DNA of 64,000 nucleotides from Escherichia coli (GTDB lineage: Bacteria > Pseudomonadota > Gammaproteobacteria > Enterobacterales > Enterobacteriaceae): the NCBI RefSeq assembly GCF_036507355.1, contig NZ_AP027877.1; one strand, written 5' to 3'. The notes under the pieces were generated by a model. It ran no database searches. It saw only the letters and a list, made by a program, of their open reading frames with translations, and was not told where the DNA came from. The position numbers and the translations under genes were made by a program. The stretch's first letter is position 1. Every line of letters starts with the position of its first letter. Below are positions 4,717-59,653 of the stretch, piece by piece.

Positions 4717-5846
4717 ACTAAGTGGTCTGCCATCATGGCATCCTTTTTTCTGGATGCCATCGCATGGCGCAACAGCACGCTACCACAAGCCACCATCCCG
4801 CCGATCAGCGCGGAAAGGATCACAATAATCGCCTTACCCGGACCGTCTTTTTTCACTGGCAATGACGGGCTTAACTGATATTTAAACGGCGTAAAATTCA
4901 CATCGTTGATATTTGCTTTTGTTAACTGCTCAACAAGATACTGACGATTACGTAATTCACCGTTCAGTTCCGCAACGTCAGTGACCGCTTTTTCAATTTC
5001 CAGTTTGCGTTCAATACCGTCTGCGCCGAGAGAAATAGAGAAATCGGGGTCATCTTTAACGGCCTGACCATTACTGTAAACGGGCTTTTTAATTCCTGCC
5101 GCGTTGGCAATGTCGAGTGAATAATTGAGGCGCTGAATGTTTGCATCAAGTTGATTTTTCATTTTAATGCGGTCCTGAGCCAGTTTTTCTTTTTCAAACT
5201 GGGTTTTGATCTCCAGTTTATTACGGACGTTTTCTATCGACTCTTTCACCACCAACGCAGAGATATAATCGATATACCCGCTCAAAACGGTCTGCGCCTC
5301 TTCACTGGTTGGCGCGGTAAAACTTAGCGTCCAGGAGGTATACAGTGACGGTTCATCTTTTTTCTTACTGGCATTGTCATCAACCGCTTTCATTTTTTCG
5401 CTCAATGCGACAATTGCGCGATGCAAATCCAGTTCGTCGATTTTCGCCTCTTTTAATTGGTCCATCACATAAGGTGATGAACGCAGGTACTCTTCCAGCA
5501 AGCTAATTGACTGAAATTTCTTGATAAACAGATTAAATACACCGCCACGGTCGATATTAACATCGAGATCAAGAACGCGGAGTTTGGTAAAGGTTTTCTC
5601 CAGGTCCTGCCACTGAATGGCTTCGGCGGGAGTAATAACGGCTGAGCTGGTCCATTTTTGCGGCAGGATGAAAGAGATCAGTAAACCTGCGCAGGCAAAT
5701 GCAAAAACGACCGCCATGACCGTTTTTTTGGCCCGCCATAAAACTTCGATTAGATTAAGTAAATCAATTTCATTATTACTGGGCGACGCCAGAGGATAAT
5801 CGGGAAAATGAGCGTCACTTCCCTGTTTAATATTCAGTGATGACAT
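4713..5846 (-). CDS. fepE: Polysaccharide co-polymerase (Wzz-like) FepE
   Basis: 377-aa ORF with N- and C-terminal hydrophobic segments and a coiled-coil-rich middle, as in FepE/Wzz family proteins; 3' end overlaps the fepC 3' end (convergent). Confidence 0.9.
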   Translation of the reverse strand: MSSLNIKQGSDAHFPDYPLASPSNNEIDLLNLIEVLWRAKKTVMAVVFAFACAGLLISFILPQKWTSSAVITPAEAIQWQDLEKTFTKLRVLDLDVNIDRGGVFNLFIKKFQSISLLEEYLRSSPYVMDQLKEAKIDELDLHRAIVALSEKMKAVDDNASKKKDEPSLYTSWTLSFTAPTSEEAQTVLSGYIDYISALVVKESIENVRNKLEIKTQFEKEKLAQDRIKMKNQLDANIQRLNYSLDIANAAGIKKPVYSNGQAVKDDPDFSISLGADGIERKLEIEKAVTDVAELNGELRNRQYLVEQLTKANINDVNFTPFKYQLSPSLPVKKDGPGKAIIVILSALIGGMVACGSVLLRHAMASRKKDAMMADHLV

Positions 5847-6013
5847 GGGGTATAACCTGAAAATGAGTCCAATAGGGGGAAATCTCCACGGCGCTCACTT
5901 TACCAGTTGGTGAGAATTATCCGAAGCTGAAGTTTGTAAATTCATTCCACTGAATGCAACATTCACTCTATTTAAGAAAAATAACCAGCAAACTTATAAA
6001 TTAAATAAATGAT

Positions 6014-6046
6014 AAACCCATAATTATTTCCTGCAATTATGGGTTT
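6014..6046 (-). terminator. Stem-loop (12-bp perfect stem) just downstream of entF, candidate intrinsic terminator or RNA stability element
   Basis: aaacccataatt / aattatgggttt inverted repeat with a 9-nt loop, followed on the minus strand by a U-rich tract (AUCAUUUAUUUAAUUU). Confidence 0.4.
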
Positions 6047-6061
6047 ATAGATAATGTTAAT

Positions 6062-9000
6062 TTATCTGTTTAGCGTTGCGCGAATAATCGGCCCAATTTT
6101 TTCAAATGCCCCTGGAGAGATAATATCCACATGCGCACAATCCTGACGATAGATATCCAGCTCCGCAATCCACGGCGACCAGGCGCGTTCAGGACTCATA
6201 CCTTCCTGAAGCGTGCGTTCAGCAACAAACAACGTCGCTTTACCGTCAAACGGTACGCTATGAGCAGTCGTCAGCAGGCGCACAGCATCAGCGTAGTTGC
6301 CTTCAATGGTGGTAAACAGCTCCGTTGAAGTACTTCCCTGCTGTGCCGCCAGGAAGGCCTCGCGCTCGCAGTTAATCTCCGCCAGCACTTCCGGGTCCAG
6401 ACCATTAGCTTCTTTTTCCTGCCAGTTTTGCGTTTCTGGCGGCCAGGTATCCAGCAAGCCAAGAAATGCCACCTGTTCGCCACGGGCACGCAGCCGCGCC
6501 GCAATCCCCTGCGCCAGCGTACCGCCCAGCGAATAACCCAGCAGGTAATAAGGGCCGTGCGGTTGTTGCTCAAGTAACGTTGCCAGATGCGCTTCGCAGA
6601 CTTCATCCAGGTTCGTCGCTGTCTGCATGGGGCCATGAGGGCGCGGCGACTGAATGCCGATAATCGACCATAGTGGATCGAGATAACGCGAGAGCACGCT
6701 AAACTGCCAGGCAAAACCGGATGCCGGATGGAAACAAAACAGCGTCGGGCCATTACCTTCACGCAACGGCAGAATGGTTTCGAATCCCATGCGCCGGGAG
6801 CTGTCCTCTTCACCATCAATAATCGTTGCCAGTTTGGCGACGGTTGACGCGACCATCACCTGCCCCGGCGTCACCTGACGGGCAAACTGCCGACTTAACT
6901 GCGCTGCCAGTTTCATTGCCAGTAGCGAATGACCGCCAAGCGCGAAGAAATCAGCATCGGCATCCTGCACGTCACAACCCAGCAACGACGCGAATGCCGC
7001 AGCGATAATCGTTTCACTGCCCGCTTTCGGCGCACGCCCCGGCGTTTGTGCCTTAAGTTCAGGCAACGGTAAGGCTTTGCGATCCAGCTTGCCGTTGGCG
7101 CTAAGAGGTAACTGTGGAAGTTGCAGCAGAACGACCGGCACCATATGCGGCGGCAATGTTTCGCGAAGCTGTGCCTGTAATGCGCTGGTATCCAACGGCA
7201 GACCTGATTGCGACACCAGATAGCCCACCAACTGACGCGCATCACCACCGGTGGCTGCCGCCTGGTTAATCACACAGGCGTGGGTAACGGCTTGTTCGAC
7301 ATCCGGCAGCGCCTGCATCACGCGATCGATTTCGCCCAGTTCGATACGCTGCCCGCGAATTTTTAGCTGATCGTCACTGCGCCCGAGGTACTCCACCGCG
7401 CCGTTATCCAGCCAGCGGGCAACGTCTCCGGTACGATACATCCGTTCACCTGGGGCAAAAGGATCGGCAATAAAACGGCTGGCGGTCAGATCGGGTCTTC
7501 CAAGATACCCCTGCGCCAGTTGAATGCCGGTGAGATAGAGATCACCCGCCACACCCGGCGGCACCGGATGCATCATCGCATCAAGAATACGCAGACCCGT
7601 ATTCCACACCGGATAACCAATCGGCACACTGCTGCCGCGCACCTGTGCCAGTTCCTCGCCAAAAGCCGGATACCAGCTCACATCTACCGCCGCTTCCGTC
7701 GGGCCATATAGATTATGCAACGGCGCGCCCGTTAACTGTTGCCATTCGCGGCATAAATCAGCCGGTAAGGCCTCACCACTACAGAAAACCTGTTTCAACG
7801 TCGCGCAATTCTGGCGAGCGGTTTGCGGAGTCAGCGATGCAACAAATGCCGCCAGCATCGACGGCACAAAGTGCGTGGTCGTTACGCCATATTCGGCAAA
7901 GAATTGCTGCATAGCGAGCGGGTCGCGGTGCGCTTCCGGTTCAGCCATCACTAGTTTAGCCCCGGCAATAAACGGCCAGAAAAACTCCCACACCGAGACA
8001 TCAAAACTGCACGGCGTTTTTTGGGCAACGACATCTTCGCCTGTAAGCGGGTAGTGATTTTGCATCCATAACAGGCGGTTAACGATAGCCGTCTGCCCGA
8101 CCATTACCCCTTTCGGCCTGCCGGTGGAACCGGAGGTAAAGATGATATAAGCCGTGTGGTGCGGTTGTGAAAGTTGCAGCGGTGCACTGCCCTGCGGTGT
8201 AAGCGGGGCGTTATAGCAAAGGCTGGTTAAATCTGGAACATCGGCAAAGCGCGGCAGTTGATCGTCGGTGGTGATTAACAGCGACGGACGCGCATCTTCC
8301 AGCATCATTTTCAGGCGATCGTCCGGATAGCCGGTATCCAGCGGTAACCAGGCCGCACCAGCTTCAACAATTGCATGTAGCGCCAGAGTCAAAAATACCG
8401 AGCGCGGTAGCGCCACCGCCACGCTGTCGCCAGGTTTAACGCCGCGCTCACGCAGCAGATTCGCCAGCGCCACCACCTGCTCGCGCATTTCCCGATAGCT
8501 GAACTGGTAACGCGCATCTGCCAGCGCCGGAGCATCCGGTGTTTTTGCCGCTTGTTCTGCCACCAGCGCGCTAAGCGTGGTTTCTGGAATCTCAACCTGA
8601 GTGGCGTTGATCTGCGCCAACTGCGCATATTCACCTGGCAGCATAATATCGACATCGCCGCACAACAGCGCCGGATCCGCGGCTAATTGGGCGATCAGCA
8701 TTTTCAGGCGTTCAGCATGCTGGATTAACGTTGGCTCATCGTAACGCTGTTTATTGGCGAGGATCTCAATACTCAAATCACCGTGTTCATCCGGGAACAG
8801 GGCCAGTTCAAGGTCATTAACCGGACCGGTTGCCAGGGTATGGGTTTGCGCCTCAACATCAAGAATATCCAGTTGGTAATCAAATACCTTGATATTGAGT
8901 ACCGGACCAAACAGCGGTTCATCACCTGCCGCTCGCCCGCTGTCACGGACAATTTGTTCGGCATCGTAACGTTGATGGCGACGCATTTTTTTCAGTTGAG

Positions 9001-21370: not shown

Positions 21371-24300
21371 TTATTTCCGTACCCGATGTCGGTGCAGCCA
21401 CATCAGCTTATACGCCGCCGGGATAATAAACAGCGACAGCAAAGGCGCGGTGATCATGCCGCCAATCATCGGCGCGGCAATCCGGCTCATCACCTCTGAC
21501 CCTGCTCCTGTTCCCCACAGAATCGGCAGCAGACCAGCGATAATCACCGCCACCGTCATCGCTTTCGGGCGCACGCGCAGTACCGCGCCGTGATACAACG
21601 CCTCATCCAGCTTCTGCTCGCTGAATGTTTGCGGATTATTCAACGACGGCTCGGCCTCTATGGCGTGACGTAAATACATCAGCATCACCACGCCAAATTC
21701 GGCGGCGACCCCGGCGAGGGCGATAAAGCCAGTGCCCGTCGCCACAGAAAGATGAAAGCCCATCCACCACAGCAACCAGATGCCGCCCACCAGCGCAAAC
21801 GGTACGCTGCTGATAATCAGCAACGCTTCGCCCACCCGACGGAATGCCAGATACAACAGCACGAAGATGATCATCAACGTCATCGGCACCATGAGTTTCA
21901 GCTTATGGTTGGCGCGCTCCAGTAGCTCGAACTGCCCGGAGAACGCCACGCTGGTGCCCGGTTTTAACTGCACTTTTTCAGCTATCGCTTTTTGCAGATC
22001 GTGAACCACCGACACCATGTCACGATCGCGGGCATCGATATAAATCCAGCTCGTCGGGCGCGCATTCTCGGTTTTCAGCATCGACGGTCCGGTAGAGACG
22101 TTAACGTCGGCCACGTCCGCCAGGGTGATTTGCTGCTTCATCGGCGTCAGGATCGGCAACTGGCGCAGCGCCTGCGGGCTATCGCGCCAGCTTTGCGGAT
22201 AACGCAGATTAATGGGATAACGGGCAATTCCTTCCACCATTTCGCCAACCATCGCCCCGCCCACCGCAGATGTCACAAACAATTGCACATCCGCCACCGT
22301 CATACCGTAACGCGCGGCTTTTTCACGGTTAATCTCAACGTTGATATAGCGCCCACCTTCCAGACGCTCGGCAAGCGCAGAAGCCACGCCTGGCACCGTT
22401 CGCGCCACTTCTTCAATTTGCTCCGCCATCGCGTCGATATCCGCCAGCACAGTGCCGGAAACTTTAATGCCGATGGGGCTTTTAATGCCGGTTGAGAGCA
22501 TATCGATACGGTTACGAATTGGCGGCACCCACAGATTCGCCAGCCCCGGCAGACGCACGGTGTTATCCAGTTCCTCAATGATTTTGTCCATCGTCATGCC
22601 TGGCCGCCACTGATCCTGTGGCTTAAGCTGAATGGTCGTTTCAACCATCTCCAGCGGAGCAGAATCGGTGGCGGTTTCCGCTTTCCCGGTTTTGCCAAAT
22701 ACCCGCGCCACTTCAGGTACGCTCATAATCAGCTTGTCGGTTTTTTGCAGCATACTCGCCGCCTCTGCTGCGGAAATCCCCGGCAGCGTCGATGGCATAT
22801 ACAACAAGTCGCCTTCATTGATCTGCGGTAAAAATTCCCCGCCAACTTTATTGAGCGGCCAGAGAACCGTCAGCACCGAAAGCGCTGCCACCAGCAGCGT
22901 GGTTTTCGGCCAGTGCAGTACTTTCAGCAATAGCGGATGATAAACACGAATCAAAAAGCGATTGAGCGGGTTACTGCTTTCCGGCGGAATTTTGCCACGG
23001 ATCCAGTAACCCATCAGGATAGGGATCACCACGATCGCCAGCAGCGCCGCGCCCGCCATCGCATACGTTTTGGTGAACGCCAGCGGGCCAAACAGACGCC
23101 CTTCCTGCCCTTCCAGGGTGAAGATCGGGATAAACGACAGTGTGATAATCAGCAGACTGATAAACAACGCCGGTCCCACTTCAACAGACGCATCGGTAAT
23201 CACCTGCCAGCGCGTTTTATTATCCAGCGTGGCGTCAGGATGCTGGTGCTGCCACTCTTCCAGCCGTTTATGCGCATTCTCGATCATGACGATAGCGGCA
23301 TCGACCATCGCCCCGACGGCAATCGCAATACCGCCCAGCGACATAATATTGGCATTCAGCCCCTGGAAGTGCATGACAATAAAAGCAATACACAACCCCA
23401 GCGGCAACGAAATAATCGCCACCAGCGCCGAGCGCACATGCCAGAGAAACAGCGCACAGACTACCGCCACCACAATAAACTCTTCCAGCAACTTGCCGCT
23501 GAGGTTGTCGATGGCCCGGTCAATGAGCTGGCTGCGATCGTATGTTGTAACTATCTCCACGCCTTCCGGCAGACTACTTTTCAGCGTTTCCAGTTTGTCC
23601 TTCACGGCGGCGATCACTTCTCGGGCGTTTTTGCCGGAGCGCAGGATCACCACCCCGCCCGCAACTTCGCCTTCGCCGTTCAGTTCGGCAATGCCCCGGC
23701 GCATCTCCGGGCCAACCTGGACCTTCGCAACATCACGCAGATAAACGGGCACGCCATTTTCACTGGCTTTTAAAACGATGTGATTAAAGTCGTCGAGCGT
23801 TTGCAGATAGCCGCTGGCGCGCACCATATATTCCGCTTCCGCCAGTTCGATCGACGAACCGCCCGCTTCCTGGTTTGAAGCATCCAGCGCATTTTTCACT
23901 TCGCCGAGACTGATGCCATACTGCGCCAGGCGCTGAGGATCGATAACCACCTGATACTCTTTCACCACACCGCCCACCGACGCCACTTCCGCAACGTCAG
24001 GGATGGTTTTTAGCTCATATTTGAGAAACCAGTCCTGCAATGAGCGTAAATCGGCCAGATCGTGCTTACCGCTGCGATCCACCAATGCATATTCATAGAT
24101 CCAGCCAACACCCGTGGCATCTGGCCCCAGCTCGGCGCTGACTCCCGCAGGCAGCTTACCCTGTACCTGGTTGAGGTACTCCAGCACCCGCGAGCGCGCC
24201 CAGTACGGATCGGTGCCATCTTCGAAAATGACATACACATAAGAGTCGCCAAACTGCGAGAAACCACGCACAGTCTTCGCGCCAGGCACCGACAACATGG

Positions 24301-47990: not shown

Positions 47991-49658
47991 TTATTGCAAA
48001 CGTTCTAATAAACGAGCCAGTTTTTTATTGCCGCCGGCGACTGGCGACCATTGGTAATGCACAACCGGTTTGCTGGCGCTTTGTAGCTCCAGCGCAAAAC
48101 TGCGTAATCCGATGTTAATCACGGCGACGTTTTCCAGTAATGACGGTGTGTGTTGCTGTGCGGCAGGCGAGAGCGGATGAATTAACGCTGCCGCCAGCAA
48201 GGTGGCTTCCGGCAGCGAACTCACTACCGCGATCCCCGCATCTTCCAGCGTGGCGATTTGCTGCGAGCGGCATTGCGGGTCACGTTCAGTGCCTGTCACC
48301 GTGGCAATGGCATACAGTGGTTGATTGTCTGAACGCGCAGCACAGGCTTTTTGCCAGGCGCTTACCAGCGAGGCGGCAGGATCGGCAGTCGCACCGAAGC
48401 CAATCACGACATCAAGCAGCAGCACACGCACTTGCGGTTTAGCGCCGAGATCGGCAATTAACTGGTTGCGTAAGGTTGGGTCGATCATCGGATGGGGACG
48501 CCCGACGGTGTAGAAATCATCGCCGAGGTCAATAATCTGGTGGCCATCGGCGTCCAGCATCATGCCGTGATGATGGGCATCATCGGCTTCCACGCCAAGG
48601 TGTCCGGCAAGTAATCCCGCCGCTTCGGCAGCCAGCGTACCGCCGGTATACAAACCGCAAATAAATCCGCTGCTGGCAGGCGTTATCGCGTTACGTCGCG
48701 CCGTAACGCGTGAAAGCAGGCAAGCCAGGCGTGCGGCCTCATCCAGCGAGGAGGCAAACCAGACATTCTCGTCGCGGGCCACCGCCGGGGTATAACCTAA
48801 AAACAGCGCCACCGTCGGTTTGCCGGTTGCTTTCATGGCATTAACAATTTTCAGACGCACCGCTTCGGCAGGTGGTTTTGAAACAAATGCCAGCACTTCG
48901 CTTTTCTCGTCTGCACTGAGCATTTCCAGCGCTGTTAGCGCACTGATGCCGCCCACTTCACGGCTGAGGTCGCGCCCGCCAAGGCCAATCGCGTGAGTAA
49001 TTCCCTCCCCTGCCAGCGCAATCTGCGAACACAGCTCCTGAATCCCGGTACCGGAAGCGCCAATGACGCCAATATTGCCTTCCGGCATCACGTTAGCAAA
49101 AGCCAGCGGCGTGGCGGCAATCATCGACGTACCGCAGTCCGGCCCCATCACCAGCAAGCCTTTTTCTCGCGCGCGGGTTTTAAGTTGGATTTCATCTTCC
49201 AGCGTGACGTTATCGGAGAACATCATCACGTTGAGGTTGCGATCCAGCGCCTGATTCGCCAGCTCCGCCGCATACTCGCCAGCCACTGAAATCAGCGCCA
49301 GATTGGCATCGGGTAATTTCTGACAGGCACTGTCCCAGCGACGCACCTGCGTCAAGGACTGGCTGCTGCCTGACCCCTGCGCCAGTTGTTTTAGCGCCTC
49401 TTCAAGCTGCTGCATAATCGCCTGCGCGATCCCCGCATCCGCCGCTTCGCTACGAATTGCCACGCAAATATCGTTCGGCGTGGCGTTATTAAAATCGTCA
49501 TGCCAGAAACCTGTGGTATCTAATAACGCTTTATTGGCGGGCGTACCCATCATTACGGAAACATCATCAACATTTTCTGATTCGCTGAGTTTTCGTGAAA
49601 TAATCATTAAACTGACCGAATCCTGAAAACACCCTTTTTTAATAAAGGCGTGGATCAT
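47991..49658 (-). CDS. fdrA: FdrA (AllF), acyl-CoA synthetase-like protein
   Basis: 555-aa ORF MIHAFIKKGCFQDSVSLMIISRKL…; first gene of the fdrA-ylbE-ylbF-ybcF block. Confidence 0.92.
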   Translation of the reverse strand: MIHAFIKKGCFQDSVSLMIISRKLSESENVDDVSVMMGTPANKALLDTTGFWHDDFNNATPNDICVAIRSEAADAGIAQAIMQQLEEALKQLAQGSGSSQSLTQVRRWDSACQKLPDANLALISVAGEYAAELANQALDRNLNVMMFSDNVTLEDEIQLKTRAREKGLLVMGPDCGTSMIAATPLAFANVMPEGNIGVIGASGTGIQELCSQIALAGEGITHAIGLGGRDLSREVGGISALTALEMLSADEKSEVLAFVSKPPAEAVRLKIVNAMKATGKPTVALFLGYTPAVARDENVWFASSLDEAARLACLLSRVTARRNAITPASSGFICGLYTGGTLAAEAAGLLAGHLGVEADDAHHHGMMLDADGHQIIDLGDDFYTVGRPHPMIDPTLRNQLIADLGAKPQVRVLLLDVVIGFGATADPAASLVSAWQKACAARSDNQPLYAIATVTGTERDPQCRSQQIATLEDAGIAVVSSLPEATLLAAALIHPLSPAAQQHTPSLLENVAVINIGLRSFALELQSASKPVVHYQWSPVAGGNKKLARLLERLQ

Positions 49659-49974
49659 AACAACTCCTTAAAAATTGCACCCATGGCAATTGCACGAGCA
49701 GTGTTAATGTGGCGATTACGGTATCGATGACAACGGGTAAATAAGGTGATGAATATCACACAGGGATTATTAACAAAAGAATTCAAATAACCGCCATGCT
49801 ATTACGTGTTATTTTTTAATAAGCGTGGTTGTTTTAAAAACCAGGTTAAAAGAGAGCGGATTATCAAATAAATTCTAACTATATTTTTTTGCCTGTCTGG
49901 ATCACATAATCCAGATATTTTCCCTGTATGTTAATTGCAGTCATGCTTCACACCGTCGTTAAAAAGGAAGACAG

Positions 49975-51024
49975 ATGAAAATCAGTCGGGAAACACTCCA
50001 CCAGCTAATTGAGAATAAACTCTGCCAGGCTGGGTTAAAACGTGAGCACGCTGCAACCGTGGCTGAAGTATTGGTTTACGCCGATGCCAGAGGGATCCAC
50101 TCTCATGGCGCGGTGCGCGTGGAATACTACGCGGAACGCATTTCAAAAGGCGGCACCAACCGCGAACCGGAGTTTCGTCTTGAGGAAACCGGGCCGTGCT
50201 CGGCAATTTTACATGCCGACAATGCCGCCGGACAGGTCGCGGCGAAAATGGGTATGGAACATGCCATCAAAACCGCCCAGCAAAATGGCGTTGCGGTGGT
50301 CGGTATCAGCCGGATGGGTCACAGCGGCGCAATCTCTTATTTTGTGCAGCAGGCAGCCCGCGCCGGATTAATTGGCATTTCGATGTGCCAGTCCGATCCA
50401 ATGGTGGTGCCGTTTGGCGGCGCGGAAATTTACTACGGTACTAACCCACTGGCCTTTGCCGCGCCGGGAGAAGGCAACGAGATCCTTACCTTTGATATGG
50501 CGACTACCGTACAGGCATGGGGAAAAGTGCTCGACGCCCGCTCGCGTAATATGTCTATCCCGGATACCTGGGCGGTCGATAAAAACGGTGCACCAACAAC
50601 CGATCCGTTCGCGGTACATGCTCTGCTCCCCGCCGCCGGGCCGAAAGGGTATGGCCTGATGATGATGATTGACGTCCTCTCAGGCGTCTTACTCGGCTTA
50701 CCGTTCGGGCGACAGGTTAGTTCGATGTATGACGATTTACACGCCGGGCGTAATTTGGGGCAATTACATTTAGTTATTAATCCGAACTTTTTCTCCTCCA
50801 GCGAATTATTCCGTCAACATCTTAGCCAGACCATGCGCGAATTAAATGCCATTACCCCCGCGCCCGGTTTTAATCAGGTTTATTATCCCGGACAGGATCA
50901 GGATATTAAACAACGCAAAGCCGCCGTCGAAGGCATCGAAATTGTTGATGATATTTACCAGTATTTAATTTCCGACGCGCTTTATAACACGTCATACGAA
51001 ACGAAAAATCCCTTTGCGCAATAA
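49975..51024 (+). CDS. allD: Ureidoglycolate dehydrogenase AllD
   Basis: 349-aa ORF MKISRETLHQLIENKLCQAGL…. Confidence 0.95.
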   Translation: MKISRETLHQLIENKLCQAGLKREHAATVAEVLVYADARGIHSHGAVRVEYYAERISKGGTNREPEFRLEETGPCSAILHADNAAGQVAAKMGMEHAIKTAQQNGVAVVGISRMGHSGAISYFVQQAARAGLIGISMCQSDPMVVPFGGAEIYYGTNPLAFAAPGEGNEILTFDMATTVQAWGKVLDARSRNMSIPDTWAVDKNGAPTTDPFAVHALLPAAGPKGYGLMMMIDVLSGVLLGLPFGRQVSSMYDDLHAGRNLGQLHLVINPNFFSSSELFRQHLSQTMRELNAITPAPGFNQVYYPGQDQDIKQRKAAVEGIEIVDDIYQYLISDALYNTSYETKNPFAQ

Positions 51025-57151: not shown

Positions 57152-58606
57152 TTAACCTATGGTTTTTTGCTCTCCTGTTTTTTCTGCTGTTGTACGTTTC
57201 TTTAATAAGGCGTAGGCCGCAAAGGCGACGATGACGCCGACAAACCATGAGACACGCGATAACGGTTCCATAAAGGGAATAAACTTACCGCCAAGAGATA
57301 AAATAACGGCCACCAGAGTTACTGAAAACGCGGTGAGGTTAAAACCGTTATCGTAATATTTATAATCGCCAGGTGCGGTGTACAGTTCATCAAGATTAAT
57401 TTGCCCACGCATCACCACAAAATAATGCGCCATCATGACACCAATTACCGGACCAAGCATTCCGCCGATAATATCGAGGAACAGATAAATACTGTCCTGA
57501 TTTTCCATTAATTTCCACGGGCAGATCAGCAGGCTGATAATACTGGCAATCAGTACGCCGTTTTTATAGGTCAGTTTTGTCGGTGCAATGGCAGCAATCT
57601 GATAACCAGCCGGAATAATATTACCAGTGGCGTTAGTGGAGATAGTCGTCATCAGAATAACCAGTACCGCAAAGAACGAGGCAAACAGGCTGTCCCAACG
57701 CTGAACAATATCCAGCACGTTCCAGGTATCAGCGCCGTAATGAATACTGGCTCCGGCAATAATACATACCCCGGCGACCGCAAACAGAATATAGGCCACA
57801 ACTAAACCCAGCGTTTGCCCCAGCGCTTGCTCACGAAACGAGTGGGCGTTTTGCGTAAAGTCGGATGCGCTCACCGCCGGAGCCGCCCAGACCGCAACTA
57901 CCGCGTTAATCACCACCAGGAACAGGAAGCCACTGTTTTCTGCTTTCTGAATACCGCTCGGAATGTAGTCAAAGATTGGACCGAGCCCGACCAGCGAAAT
58001 CGCCCAAATCGCCATACCGCCGAAAACGATATAGATGCACGGGTTAAGAATGGCAGTGAATTTATTTAAAACTTTGCCACCGCCAAAACCTATACCAACG
58101 TTGACCAGCCAGAAGAGTAAGAAAGTAATTAAGCCCGGTAGAGAAAGGCCTAACAGAGTGAAATCACCACCGAGAGTCAAAAATCCCGGCCAGATTTTGC
58201 CAATCAGAATCAAGCAGGCCAGTGACCCCGCGTAACATTGCAGGCCAAACCACATAATGGCAGCAATACCGCCTCTTAATAATCCGGGAAACAGTGCGCC
58301 ACGTACGCCGTAAGAAGCACGCAGGATCATGGCAAACGGTACGCCGTATTTACTGCCCGCAGCGCCGTTTAATACCATTACCGCGGCAATGAAAAAGGCG
58401 CTGAGGATAATTGCCAGCATAATACTAAAGGTAGACAAGCCGAGAATAAAAAAGCCGCCGACCATCACATAATTGGGAACGTTATGAACCGAACCCATCC
58501 ATAAGGTAAAATAGTTAAATGTTTTCCAGGTCCGCTGGCTTTGCGTTTTCGGCAATAGATCTTCGCTATAGCCGCGTTGCTGGAATAGTTTTCTCTGATG
58601 TTCCAT
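57152..58606 (-). CDS. ybbW: Allantoin permease YbbW (NCS1 family)
   Basis: 484-aa polytopic membrane ORF MEHQRKLFQQRGYSEDLLPKTQSQRTW…. Confidence 0.92.
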   Translation of the reverse strand: MEHQRKLFQQRGYSEDLLPKTQSQRTWKTFNYFTLWMGSVHNVPNYVMVGGFFILGLSTFSIMLAIILSAFFIAAVMVLNGAAGSKYGVPFAMILRASYGVRGALFPGLLRGGIAAIMWFGLQCYAGSLACLILIGKIWPGFLTLGGDFTLLGLSLPGLITFLLFWLVNVGIGFGGGKVLNKFTAILNPCIYIVFGGMAIWAISLVGLGPIFDYIPSGIQKAENSGFLFLVVINAVVAVWAAPAVSASDFTQNAHSFREQALGQTLGLVVAYILFAVAGVCIIAGASIHYGADTWNVLDIVQRWDSLFASFFAVLVILMTTISTNATGNIIPAGYQIAAIAPTKLTYKNGVLIASIISLLICPWKLMENQDSIYLFLDIIGGMLGPVIGVMMAHYFVVMRGQINLDELYTAPGDYKYYDNGFNLTAFSVTLVAVILSLGGKFIPFMEPLSRVSWFVGVIVAFAAYALLKKRTTAEKTGEQKTIG

Positions 58607-58774
58607 AAATCCCTCTTAATTTCACGTATCGAATAACGTTGTTTTAATCTAGCTATGAGGAACAAATAAAATAAAAATATTATTTTTAATACTGAAGCAA
58701 CATCTTTGGCTGCTTTCTTTTTTAATATTGCTGGCCGATTCATTTTTTGATATCGGCCATTTTTATTGCGGGTA

Positions 58775-59653
58775 TCAGGCCAGTTTATGGTTAGCCATTA
58801 ATTCCAGCGCCTGCACTAACGCAGAGTGATCCAACTGGCTGCCACCGTTTGCCGCGCAGGTATTAAATAACTCCTGGCAGGTCGCAGTGTTTGGCAGGTT
58901 CAGCGCCAGTGCCTTCGCACTTTGCAGTGCCAGGTTGAGATCTTTCTGGTGCAGCGCAATTTTGAAACCTGGATTAAAGGTGCGTTTAATCATGCGCTCA
59001 CCGTGAACTTCCAGAATACGTGAGGAAGCAAAGCCGCCCATCAGCGCCTGGCGCACACGTACCGGGTCTGCACCGGCTTTTGAAGCAAACAGCAGAGCTT
59101 CAGAGACCGCTTCAATATTGAGCGCTACGATAATCTGATTTGCCACTTTGCAGGTTTGACCGTCGCCGTTACCGCCCACAAGGGTGATATTTTTACCGAG
59201 CAGTTCAAACAGCGGTTTAACACGTTCAAATACCGCTTCGTCACCGCCAACCATAATTGACAACGTCCCTTCACGCGCGCCGATTTCGCCGCCGGAGACT
59301 GGCGCATCGAGATAATCACCACCCAGTTCATTCACCTGACGAGCGAAACGTTTAGTTTCAATCGGTGAAATGGAGCTCATATCAACAATGGTTTTGCCCT
59401 TCAGCGAGGCTTTGGTACAACCATTTTCACCAAACAGAATTTCTTCAACCTGAGGTGTGTCCGGCACCATAATAAAAATGATGTCCGCTGCTTCCGTTAC
59501 CTGGCGCGCGGTGTCGACATTAACAGCACCGAGTGACAGTAATTCATCAGCAACCGGTCCAATGGTCGTGACATGTAATTGATGGCCGGCACGCGCCAGA
59601 TTAATGGCCATCGGAGTACCCATAATGCCTAAGCCAATAAATCCCAGTTTCAT
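58775..59653 (-). CDS. glxR: Tartronate semialdehyde reductase GlxR
   Basis: 292-aa ORF MKLGFIGLGIMGTPMAINL… with an NAD-binding GxGxxG. Confidence 0.95.
   Translation of the reverse strand: MKLGFIGLGIMGTPMAINLARAGHQLHVTTIGPVADELLSLGAVNVDTARQVTEAADIIFIMVPDTPQVEEILFGENGCTKASLKGKTIVDMSSISPIETKRFARQVNELGGDYLDAPVSGGEIGAREGTLSIMVGGDEAVFERVKPLFELLGKNITLVGGNGDGQTCKVANQIIVALNIEAVSEALLFASKAGADPVRVRQALMGGFASSRILEVHGERMIKRTFNPGFKIALHQKDLNLALQSAKALALNLPNTATCQELFNTCAANGGSQLDHSALVQALELMANHKLA

Follow-up and report, generated by a model that had tools for sequence, protein, structure and literature searches.

The closest described system, allDp/allFp of the all regulon in E. coli (Rintoul et al. 2002; Kim & Kim 2025, PMC12535856), is the very locus studied here, with the same genes and the same 316-bp gap between them. 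The operon fdrA-ylbE-ylbF-ybcF has been renamed allFGHK and encodes an oxamic transcarbamylase and a catabolic carbamate kinase (PMC11326118). Expression of an allD'-'lacZ fusion was AllS-dependent and anaerobic, as the work is cited in a later study (Rintoul et al. 2002, cited in PMC12535856). A plasmid-borne allF'-'lacZ fusion gave 15–19 Miller units aerobically and ∼105 Miller units anaerobically with ammonium, and ∼4000 Miller units were reached only under anaerobiosis with allantoin (Kim & Kim 2025, PMC12535856). The fusion required anaerobiosis, allantoin, AllS and ArcA; the in vivo dependence of allF on allS and arcA was strong and was accompanied by complementation, and deletion of allR had no direct effect (PMC12535856). 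This reporter activity indicates a promoter on the allF side.

In gel shifts, a lysate of AllS-overexpressing cells retarded a 60-bp fragment spanning −203 to −144 from the allF ATG, and a lysate with phosphorylated ArcA retarded the fragment from −142 to −83 (PMC12535856). When the published coordinates are converted as 49658 + N, these fragments correspond to 49802–49861 and 49741–49800 of the window, by which we mean the whole stretch of 64,000 nucleotides analyzed here. The lysates were crude and the sole negative control was the unrelated protein EBNA, without an empty-vector lysate (PMC12535856). The placement of AllS and ArcA by these gel shifts is therefore tentative. An AllS ChIP-seq model in another study failed to train (PMC11142182). 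The −10 and −35 marks in the same study are a computational promoter prediction, and we found no experimentally mapped start sites for allD or allF in the literature searched.

Parts of this locus also resemble other described promoters. The likeness to class II CRP promoters with a pathway-specific upstream activator, of which melAB with MelR is an example, lies in a consensus-like CRP site ∼41 bp upstream of a predicted start, the lack of a recognizable −35 and the pathway-specific activator. Unlike those promoters, this locus would carry the arrangement twice, once for each divergent operon and in mirror-image orientation, and the box of the second copy amounts to a half-site in E. coli. 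LysR-type promoters carry a recognition site near −65 (the −58 to −80 region is canonical), an activation site near −35 and a T-N11-A box. AllS is a LysR-type regulator, and both predicted promoters have conserved AT-rich blocks at ∼−58 to −80. However, a CRP-type box takes the −35/−45 position here, the fragment reported to bind AllS is more distant (∼−79 to −116), and allS is, unlike the genes of many LysR-type regulators, neither adjacent nor divergent to its target. With ArcA-P promoters the locus shares the strong arcA dependence in vivo and the gel shift with a phosphorylated ArcA lysate (PMC12535856); it differs from their TGTTA direct repeats at 11-bp spacing in that the consensus is matched about as often as by chance and its single good TGTTA varies between genera.

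The original prediction had placed a 316-bp gap at 49659–49974, and these coordinates are exact. The gap is flanked by the FdrA ORF on the minus strand (47991..49658, 555 aa) and the AllD ORF on the plus strand (49975..51024, 349 aa). It had been read as dividing the allDCE and fdrA-ylbE-ylbF-ybcF operons, which agrees with the gene layout and with the RefSeq annotation of identical and near-identical E. coli genomes, where both fdrA and allD are named. K-12 has the same divergent layout (allE-allC-allD versus fdrA-ylbE-ylbF-ybcF) around a 316-bp gap, with no features annotated inside it. The segment 49559–50074 is present at 95–100% identity in 5351 of 5426 complete E. coli genomes, always annotated as fdrA and allD, and the gap itself is 96–100% identical to allDp/allFp of other E. 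coli, with no difference in kind. The marked AT-richness that had been pointed out is borne out by a GC content of 35.8% as against a window mean of 52.6%. GC contents this low or lower occur in 0.34% of all 316-nt segments, which occupy three places in the 64 kb; the other two are 5734–6144 and 58460–58807. Both A/T runs quoted earlier were found, ttattttttaataagcg at 49809–49825 and ctaactatatttttttgcc at 49875–49893. The proposed anaerobic, allantoin-dependent activation of AllS type is supported by the published allD and allF fusions and gel shifts. The gap is the control region of two divergent anaerobic allantoin operons; as an annotation this is correct, ordinary and already published. 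Whether E. coli and its relatives gain all the nitrogen of allantoin, and one ATP with it, in the anaerobic gut is decided by this region. In Klebsiella liver-abscess strains, one report presents allS as a virulence determinant (PMC10163214). What we add is a comparative map that marks one CRP site with high confidence, a predicted −10 hexamer on each side and two mirrored conserved blocks.

A genome scan with AllD returned 80 loci, including 33 Enterobacterales loci with fdrA divergent from allD. The length of the gap is 295–316 bp in 17 Enterobacteriaceae and 357–507 bp in Serratia, Erwinia, Pantoea, Providencia, Budvicia and Pragia. Comparative alignment had been proposed earlier as a way to find conserved blocks, and aligning the 17 Enterobacteriaceae indeed revealed discrete conserved elements. 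The mean majority fraction per column was 0.715, against baselines of 0.64 for third codon positions of allD and 0.90–0.93 for first and second positions, and several blocks in the gap are conserved like codon positions 1 and 2. Judged by this alignment, the gap is not a neutral spacer, as its length is held and its blocks are conserved. Within Escherichia, SNPs cluster at 49712–49738 and 49793–49858, the latter being a central region that evolves at an approximately neutral rate; 49859–49974 and the CRP site described below show no variation. Two elements, GTGA-N6-TCACA on the fdrA side and GATCACA on the allD side, are kept across the order with a mutual spacing of 146–152 bp in most species. 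The fdrA start codon is conserved in all orthologues (ATG at 49658–49656). The conserved elements of the 17-species alignment include both ribosome-binding sites, AAGGAG of fdrA at 49664–49669 on the minus strand and AAGGAAG of allD at 49964–49970 on the plus strand, ahead of the ATG at 49975.

The fdrA-side element, GTGA-N6-TCACA at 49746–49760, lies within a CRP site, TAAGGTGATGAATATCACACAG, at 49742–49763 (centre 49752.5, 94.5 nt upstream of the fdrA ATG). Its half-sites are invariant and its spacer is free to vary in the 17 Enterobacteriaceae, and TGA-N6-TCACA is kept across Enterobacterales, including Serratia, Erwinia, Pantoea and Budvicia. We scored the window with a matrix made from the 39 independent high-affinity sites in Table 1 of a Footprint-seq preprint (Wang, Stringer & Wade 2026, PMC12871828). 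TAAGGTGATGAATATCACACAG reached 18.8 bits, above the training median of 17.2 bits, and was the top match in the 64-kb window. The runner-up was AGTGTGATAATCAGCAGACT at 23139–23158, with 12.5 bits. The same table lists in vitro binding of CRP at K-12 position 546586, allD/fdrA, with the sequence tgTGTGAtattcaTCACCtta and a Kd of 9.8 nM, and flags the site as novel (PMC12871828 Table 1); tgTGTGAtattcaTCACCtta is the exact reverse complement of 49742–49762. The original prediction had held that no operator could be confidently assigned by eye, and it gave none, but the CRP site at 49742–49763 can now be assigned with confidence, with binding known in vitro. In the literature searched we found no reports of in vivo CRP-cAMP dependence of allD or fdrA transcription.

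A predicted −10 hexamer of fdrA, TACCGT, is located at 49718–49723 on the minus strand, from which a start at ∼49710–49712 would follow. The TAnnnT pattern is kept across the order, where the variants TAGCCT, TACCTT, TAGCTT and TAATTT share the T, the A and the final T, and so is the distance of 21 nt between the CRP box and this hexamer. Relative to the predicted −10, the CRP site would be centred at ∼−41.5, a class II geometry. On the allD side the predicted −10 hexamer is TATGTT at 49927–49932 on the plus strand (TACATT in Serratia and Erwinia), with a predicted start at ∼49939–49940. The surrounding GTATGTT (49926–49932) has GTAT.TT invariant in the 17-species alignment. Upstream of it lies a box with a CRP-type half-site (49889–49908, plus strand), in which GATCACA at 49900–49906 is invariant in 33 of 33 orthologues. 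From TCACA to the predicted −10 there are 20 nt, kept across the order, so that the centre of this box would fall at −40.5 to −41.5 from the predicted start, again a class II position. As a CRP site the allD box scores 1.4 bits in E. coli and ∼7–14.5 bits in most other genera, where it commonly ranks second among the CRP matches of the gap. The weakest CRP sites have been found to lean mainly on one half-site (PMC12871828). Given that its score in E. coli is only 1.4 bits, the allD box could bind another protein and serve, e.g., as an activation subsite for AllS. The box also holds a GATC, the target of Dam methylation, at 49900–49903, conserved in 33 of 33 orthologues. We could not recognize a usable −35 hexamer at either predicted promoter, which fits activator dependence. 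A generic scan of the gap gave two promoter-like and two terminator-like hits where 1.7 and 0.9 were expected, i.e., chance level, and neither of the two promoter-like hits coincided with a conserved element.

The two sides of the gap also resemble each other further upstream. For each of 15 diverse species, the 55 nt upstream of one box were compared with the 55 nt upstream of the other, each half being read in the direction of the gene it serves. In these species, which are related so that shared ancestry is counted, the halves in register (shift 0) had a mean identity of 44.8%, compared with 26–36% at the other shifts from −10 to +10, a control that uses the same sequences. In the direct, non-mirrored orientation the identity was 28–36%, and the shuffle null was 0.313 ± 0.015, and none of 1000 trials exceeded 0.365. 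Counted from the predicted starts, the positions common to both halves are ATT at −80 to −78, A at −72, TTnT at −67 to −64, cAAT at −61 to −58, AAt at −92 to −90 and TTnTTnAAnA at −111 to −102.

The strongest conserved block, GATTATCAAATAAATTCTAACTAT at 49860–49882 on the plus strand, covers ∼−80 to −58 from the predicted allD start and is a candidate site for AllS or another activator. Within it, 49862–49879 has a majority fraction of 0.92, as against 0.64 for third codon positions, and is invariant within Escherichia. It is mirrored by a conserved block on the fdrA side, 49769–49791 on the minus strand, which likewise covers ∼−80 to −58 and is a candidate AllS site; the top-scoring published ArcA prediction (−117) falls within this block (PMC12535856 Fig. 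3 legend). The symmetry of the blocks at −58 to −80 is weak, and we saw no clear conserved T-N11-A dyad in the gap. The fragment shifted by AllS lysate, 49802–49861, coincides with a central, fast-evolving A/T-tract region whose conservation is 0.63, about the third-codon baseline; the pseudo-dyad centre of the whole gap lies in it at ∼49825. The fragment leaves out both strongly conserved blocks that we propose as AllS sites. The TTnTTnAAnA of both halves sits inside it, so that this fast-evolving fragment is compatible with AllS binding. In K. spallanzanii (L018:2561-3000) a repeat element of 125 bp is inserted exactly at the centre of the gap and both halves are intact, suggesting that the two halves are separable modules and not one common site.

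Serratia sp. Ag1 (L032) has an insertion of ∼125 bp between the allD −10 and the ribosome-binding site, with the conserved boxes intact. The inserts of both species contain ...CCCAGTCAC...CTCCTGGGGA.TCAC..., which we take to be an ERIC-type intergenic repeat.

Several other candidate elements were rejected. The palindrome TGGTTGTTTTAAAAACCA (49826–49843) is not conserved between genera and both of its arms are broken in K-12. The few SNPs that separate the gap of this strain from that of K-12 lie in the central region and include both TGGTT...AACCA arms, which read TTGTT...AATCA in K-12. A second palindrome, CTGGATCACATAATCCAG (49897–49914), is not conserved between genera either, and both were dismissed as independent operators. 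An IHF site, with WATCAANNNNTTR read by eye over 49862–49874, was dismissed since the TTR part does not fit and the critical C differs among species. A search for GATTAT-type blocks elsewhere in the window gave nothing informative.

We consider it likely that the gap is a shared control region with two mirror-image, activator-dependent σ70 promoters, with CRP at a class II position, AllS upstream and ArcA as the anaerobic signal. Each promoter would consist of a conserved TAnnnT −10 and a CRP-type box ∼41 bp upstream of the predicted start, without a usable −35; the fdrA box would be the strong one and the allD box, in E. coli, a half-site only. CRP-cAMP would recruit RNA polymerase from the class II position, at a site bound in vitro on the fdrA side and presumed on the allD side. 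AllS would most plausibly bind the AT-rich conserved positions at ∼−58 to −111, which have the same layout on both sides, and from there supply the pathway-specific activation of both promoters. The level of AllS would be set by AllR, glyoxylate and nitrogen status, and ArcA would add the anaerobic signal, directly or indirectly. A genomic-SELEX peak of NtrC has been reported at K-12 547,672 and listed between 'fdrA' and 'ylbF' (PMC8743547). This position corresponds to ∼48666 of the window, inside the fdrA coding region and outside the gap, and the peak may be relevant to the unexplained response of the pathway to nitrogen limitation.

The published two-factor model could instead be complete as it stands, with AllS at one central site (∼49839) and ArcA-P near 49775 and 49792 activating allF, and with a CRP site that is bound in vitro only and has no regulatory role. 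The strong allS and arcA dependence in vivo, with complementation, and the gel shifts on two gap fragments speak for this model (PMC12535856), and the in vivo requirement for ArcA is solid. However, the fragment that was shifted by the phosphorylated ArcA lysate (allFp −142/−83, 49741–49800) contains the whole CRP site, and the CRP palindrome is the only element in this fragment that is invariant across the order. The TGTTA at 49771–49775 on the minus strand, which lies under the top-scoring published ArcA prediction, is not kept between genera. Scanning the gap with the 15-mer ArcA consensus GTTAATTAAATGTTA, said to be that of Liu and De Wulf from 2004, gave no matches at up to four mismatches and three at up to five, compared with 2.65 in shuffles, so that matches are at chance level for AT-rich DNA of this composition. 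The AllS motif score of 1.00 in the same work (PMC12535856) is probably explained by a matrix that goes back to this locus itself, and the missing empty-vector lysate bears on both shifts. On this balance we find it doubtful that the two-factor model is the whole account. Some caution toward the published site assignments for ArcA and AllS is accordingly in order, since the in vitro controls behind them are weak and the motif matches are at chance level or unconserved; our doubt about them is modest. ArcA could also act indirectly on allF.

A more far-reaching version of the arrangement with CRP and AllS at two mirrored promoters is put forward here only tentatively. It holds that the promoter pair is order-wide, that each promoter is co-activated by CRP at ∼−41.5 and by an AllS oligomer at ∼−58 to −111 that stands back to back with its twin, and that CRP directly regulates the oxamate branch as an unrecognized third factor. 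In that case the published assignment of ArcA to 49741–49800 would be misattributed at least in part, owing to an indirect effect of ArcA or to another protein in the lysate. An iPro54 score has also been quoted in the published work (PMC12535856). We rejected a σ54 promoter, since TGGCAC-N5-TTGCW (−24/−12) has no match at up to two mismatches inside 49659–49974.

It is very unlikely that the boxes at ∼−41.5 are FNR sites through which FNR gives the strict anaerobic induction. In favor of this reading, promoters activated by FNR typically have their sites at a class II position, GTGATgaatATCAC agrees with TTGATnnnnATCAA at 8 of 10 positions, and Providencia and Pragia carry TTGA in one half-site. 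CRP and FNR sites are told apart by a G, not a T, before TGA. The discriminating bases are of the CRP type and invariant, with the single TTGA half-site of Providencia and Pragia as the exception, and a class II FNR promoter (TTGAT-N4-ATCAA) was ruled out on these bases. Further, GTGA...TCAC is invariant in 17 of 17 Enterobacteriaceae as well as in Serratia, Erwinia and Budvicia, the site has a Kd of ∼10 nM for purified CRP (PMC12871828), and the published PRODORIC scan returned no FNR site (PMC12535856).

That the AT-richness marks just an H-NS-type silenced spacer or a relaxed composition, without specific operator architecture, is highly improbable. The very low GC content and the near-neutral rate of 49793–49858 fit this explanation, but the gap length is fixed, discrete blocks are invariant across a bacterial order and the mirror symmetry is in register. 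As a sole explanation it is already contradicted by the conservation pattern, and H-NS binding could coexist with specific sites.

The predicted fdrA leader contains an inverted repeat, AATTGCA-cccat-GGCAATT, at 49673–49691, 15–33 nt upstream of the fdrA ATG, which is a candidate operator. It is unique in the window and invariant within Escherichia. Its consensus, AATTGCAcccatKGCAATT, is kept in Escherichia, Citrobacter, Klebsiella, Raoultella and Superficieibacter, and the repeat is lost in Buttiauxella and Atlantibacter. The repeat is conserved and adjoins the ribosome-binding site, as would suit a cis-acting RNA (leader hairpin, riboswitch or small RNA) controlling fdrA or allD, but we give this hardly any credence. 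Neither predicted leader folds more stably than its shuffled sequences (z +0.43 for fdrA, +1.25 for the other leader), the stem shows no compensatory changes and is missing from several genera, and the gap matches no Rfam family; its single hit, a eukaryotic scaRNA, scores 18.7 bits where the gathering score is 65.

Outside Enterobacterales, Firmicutes (Paenibacillus, Bacillus, Sporosarcina and others; L041, L050-L081) carry an FdrA homologue of ∼40% identity. Its gene follows allD in the same orientation, mostly with a start ∼60–300 nt past the end of allD. As it is co-directional and not divergent, the divergent, mirrored control region is specific to Enterobacterales. Two loci in assemblies labeled 'Chryseobacterium sp. 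18061' (L011) and 'MAG: Sporobacter termitidis bin60' (L013) are allD-fdrA loci of the Enterobacteriaceae type with an AllD identity of 83%. The gap of the first aligns with Citrobacter sp. 18056 and that of the second with Klebsiella/Raoultella, which looks like mislabeling or contamination. In E. coli 07_3337 (L085:616-915), allD is annotated as a pseudogene with an internal stop, and the T-run in its gap at the position of 49884–49890 is 1 nt shorter.
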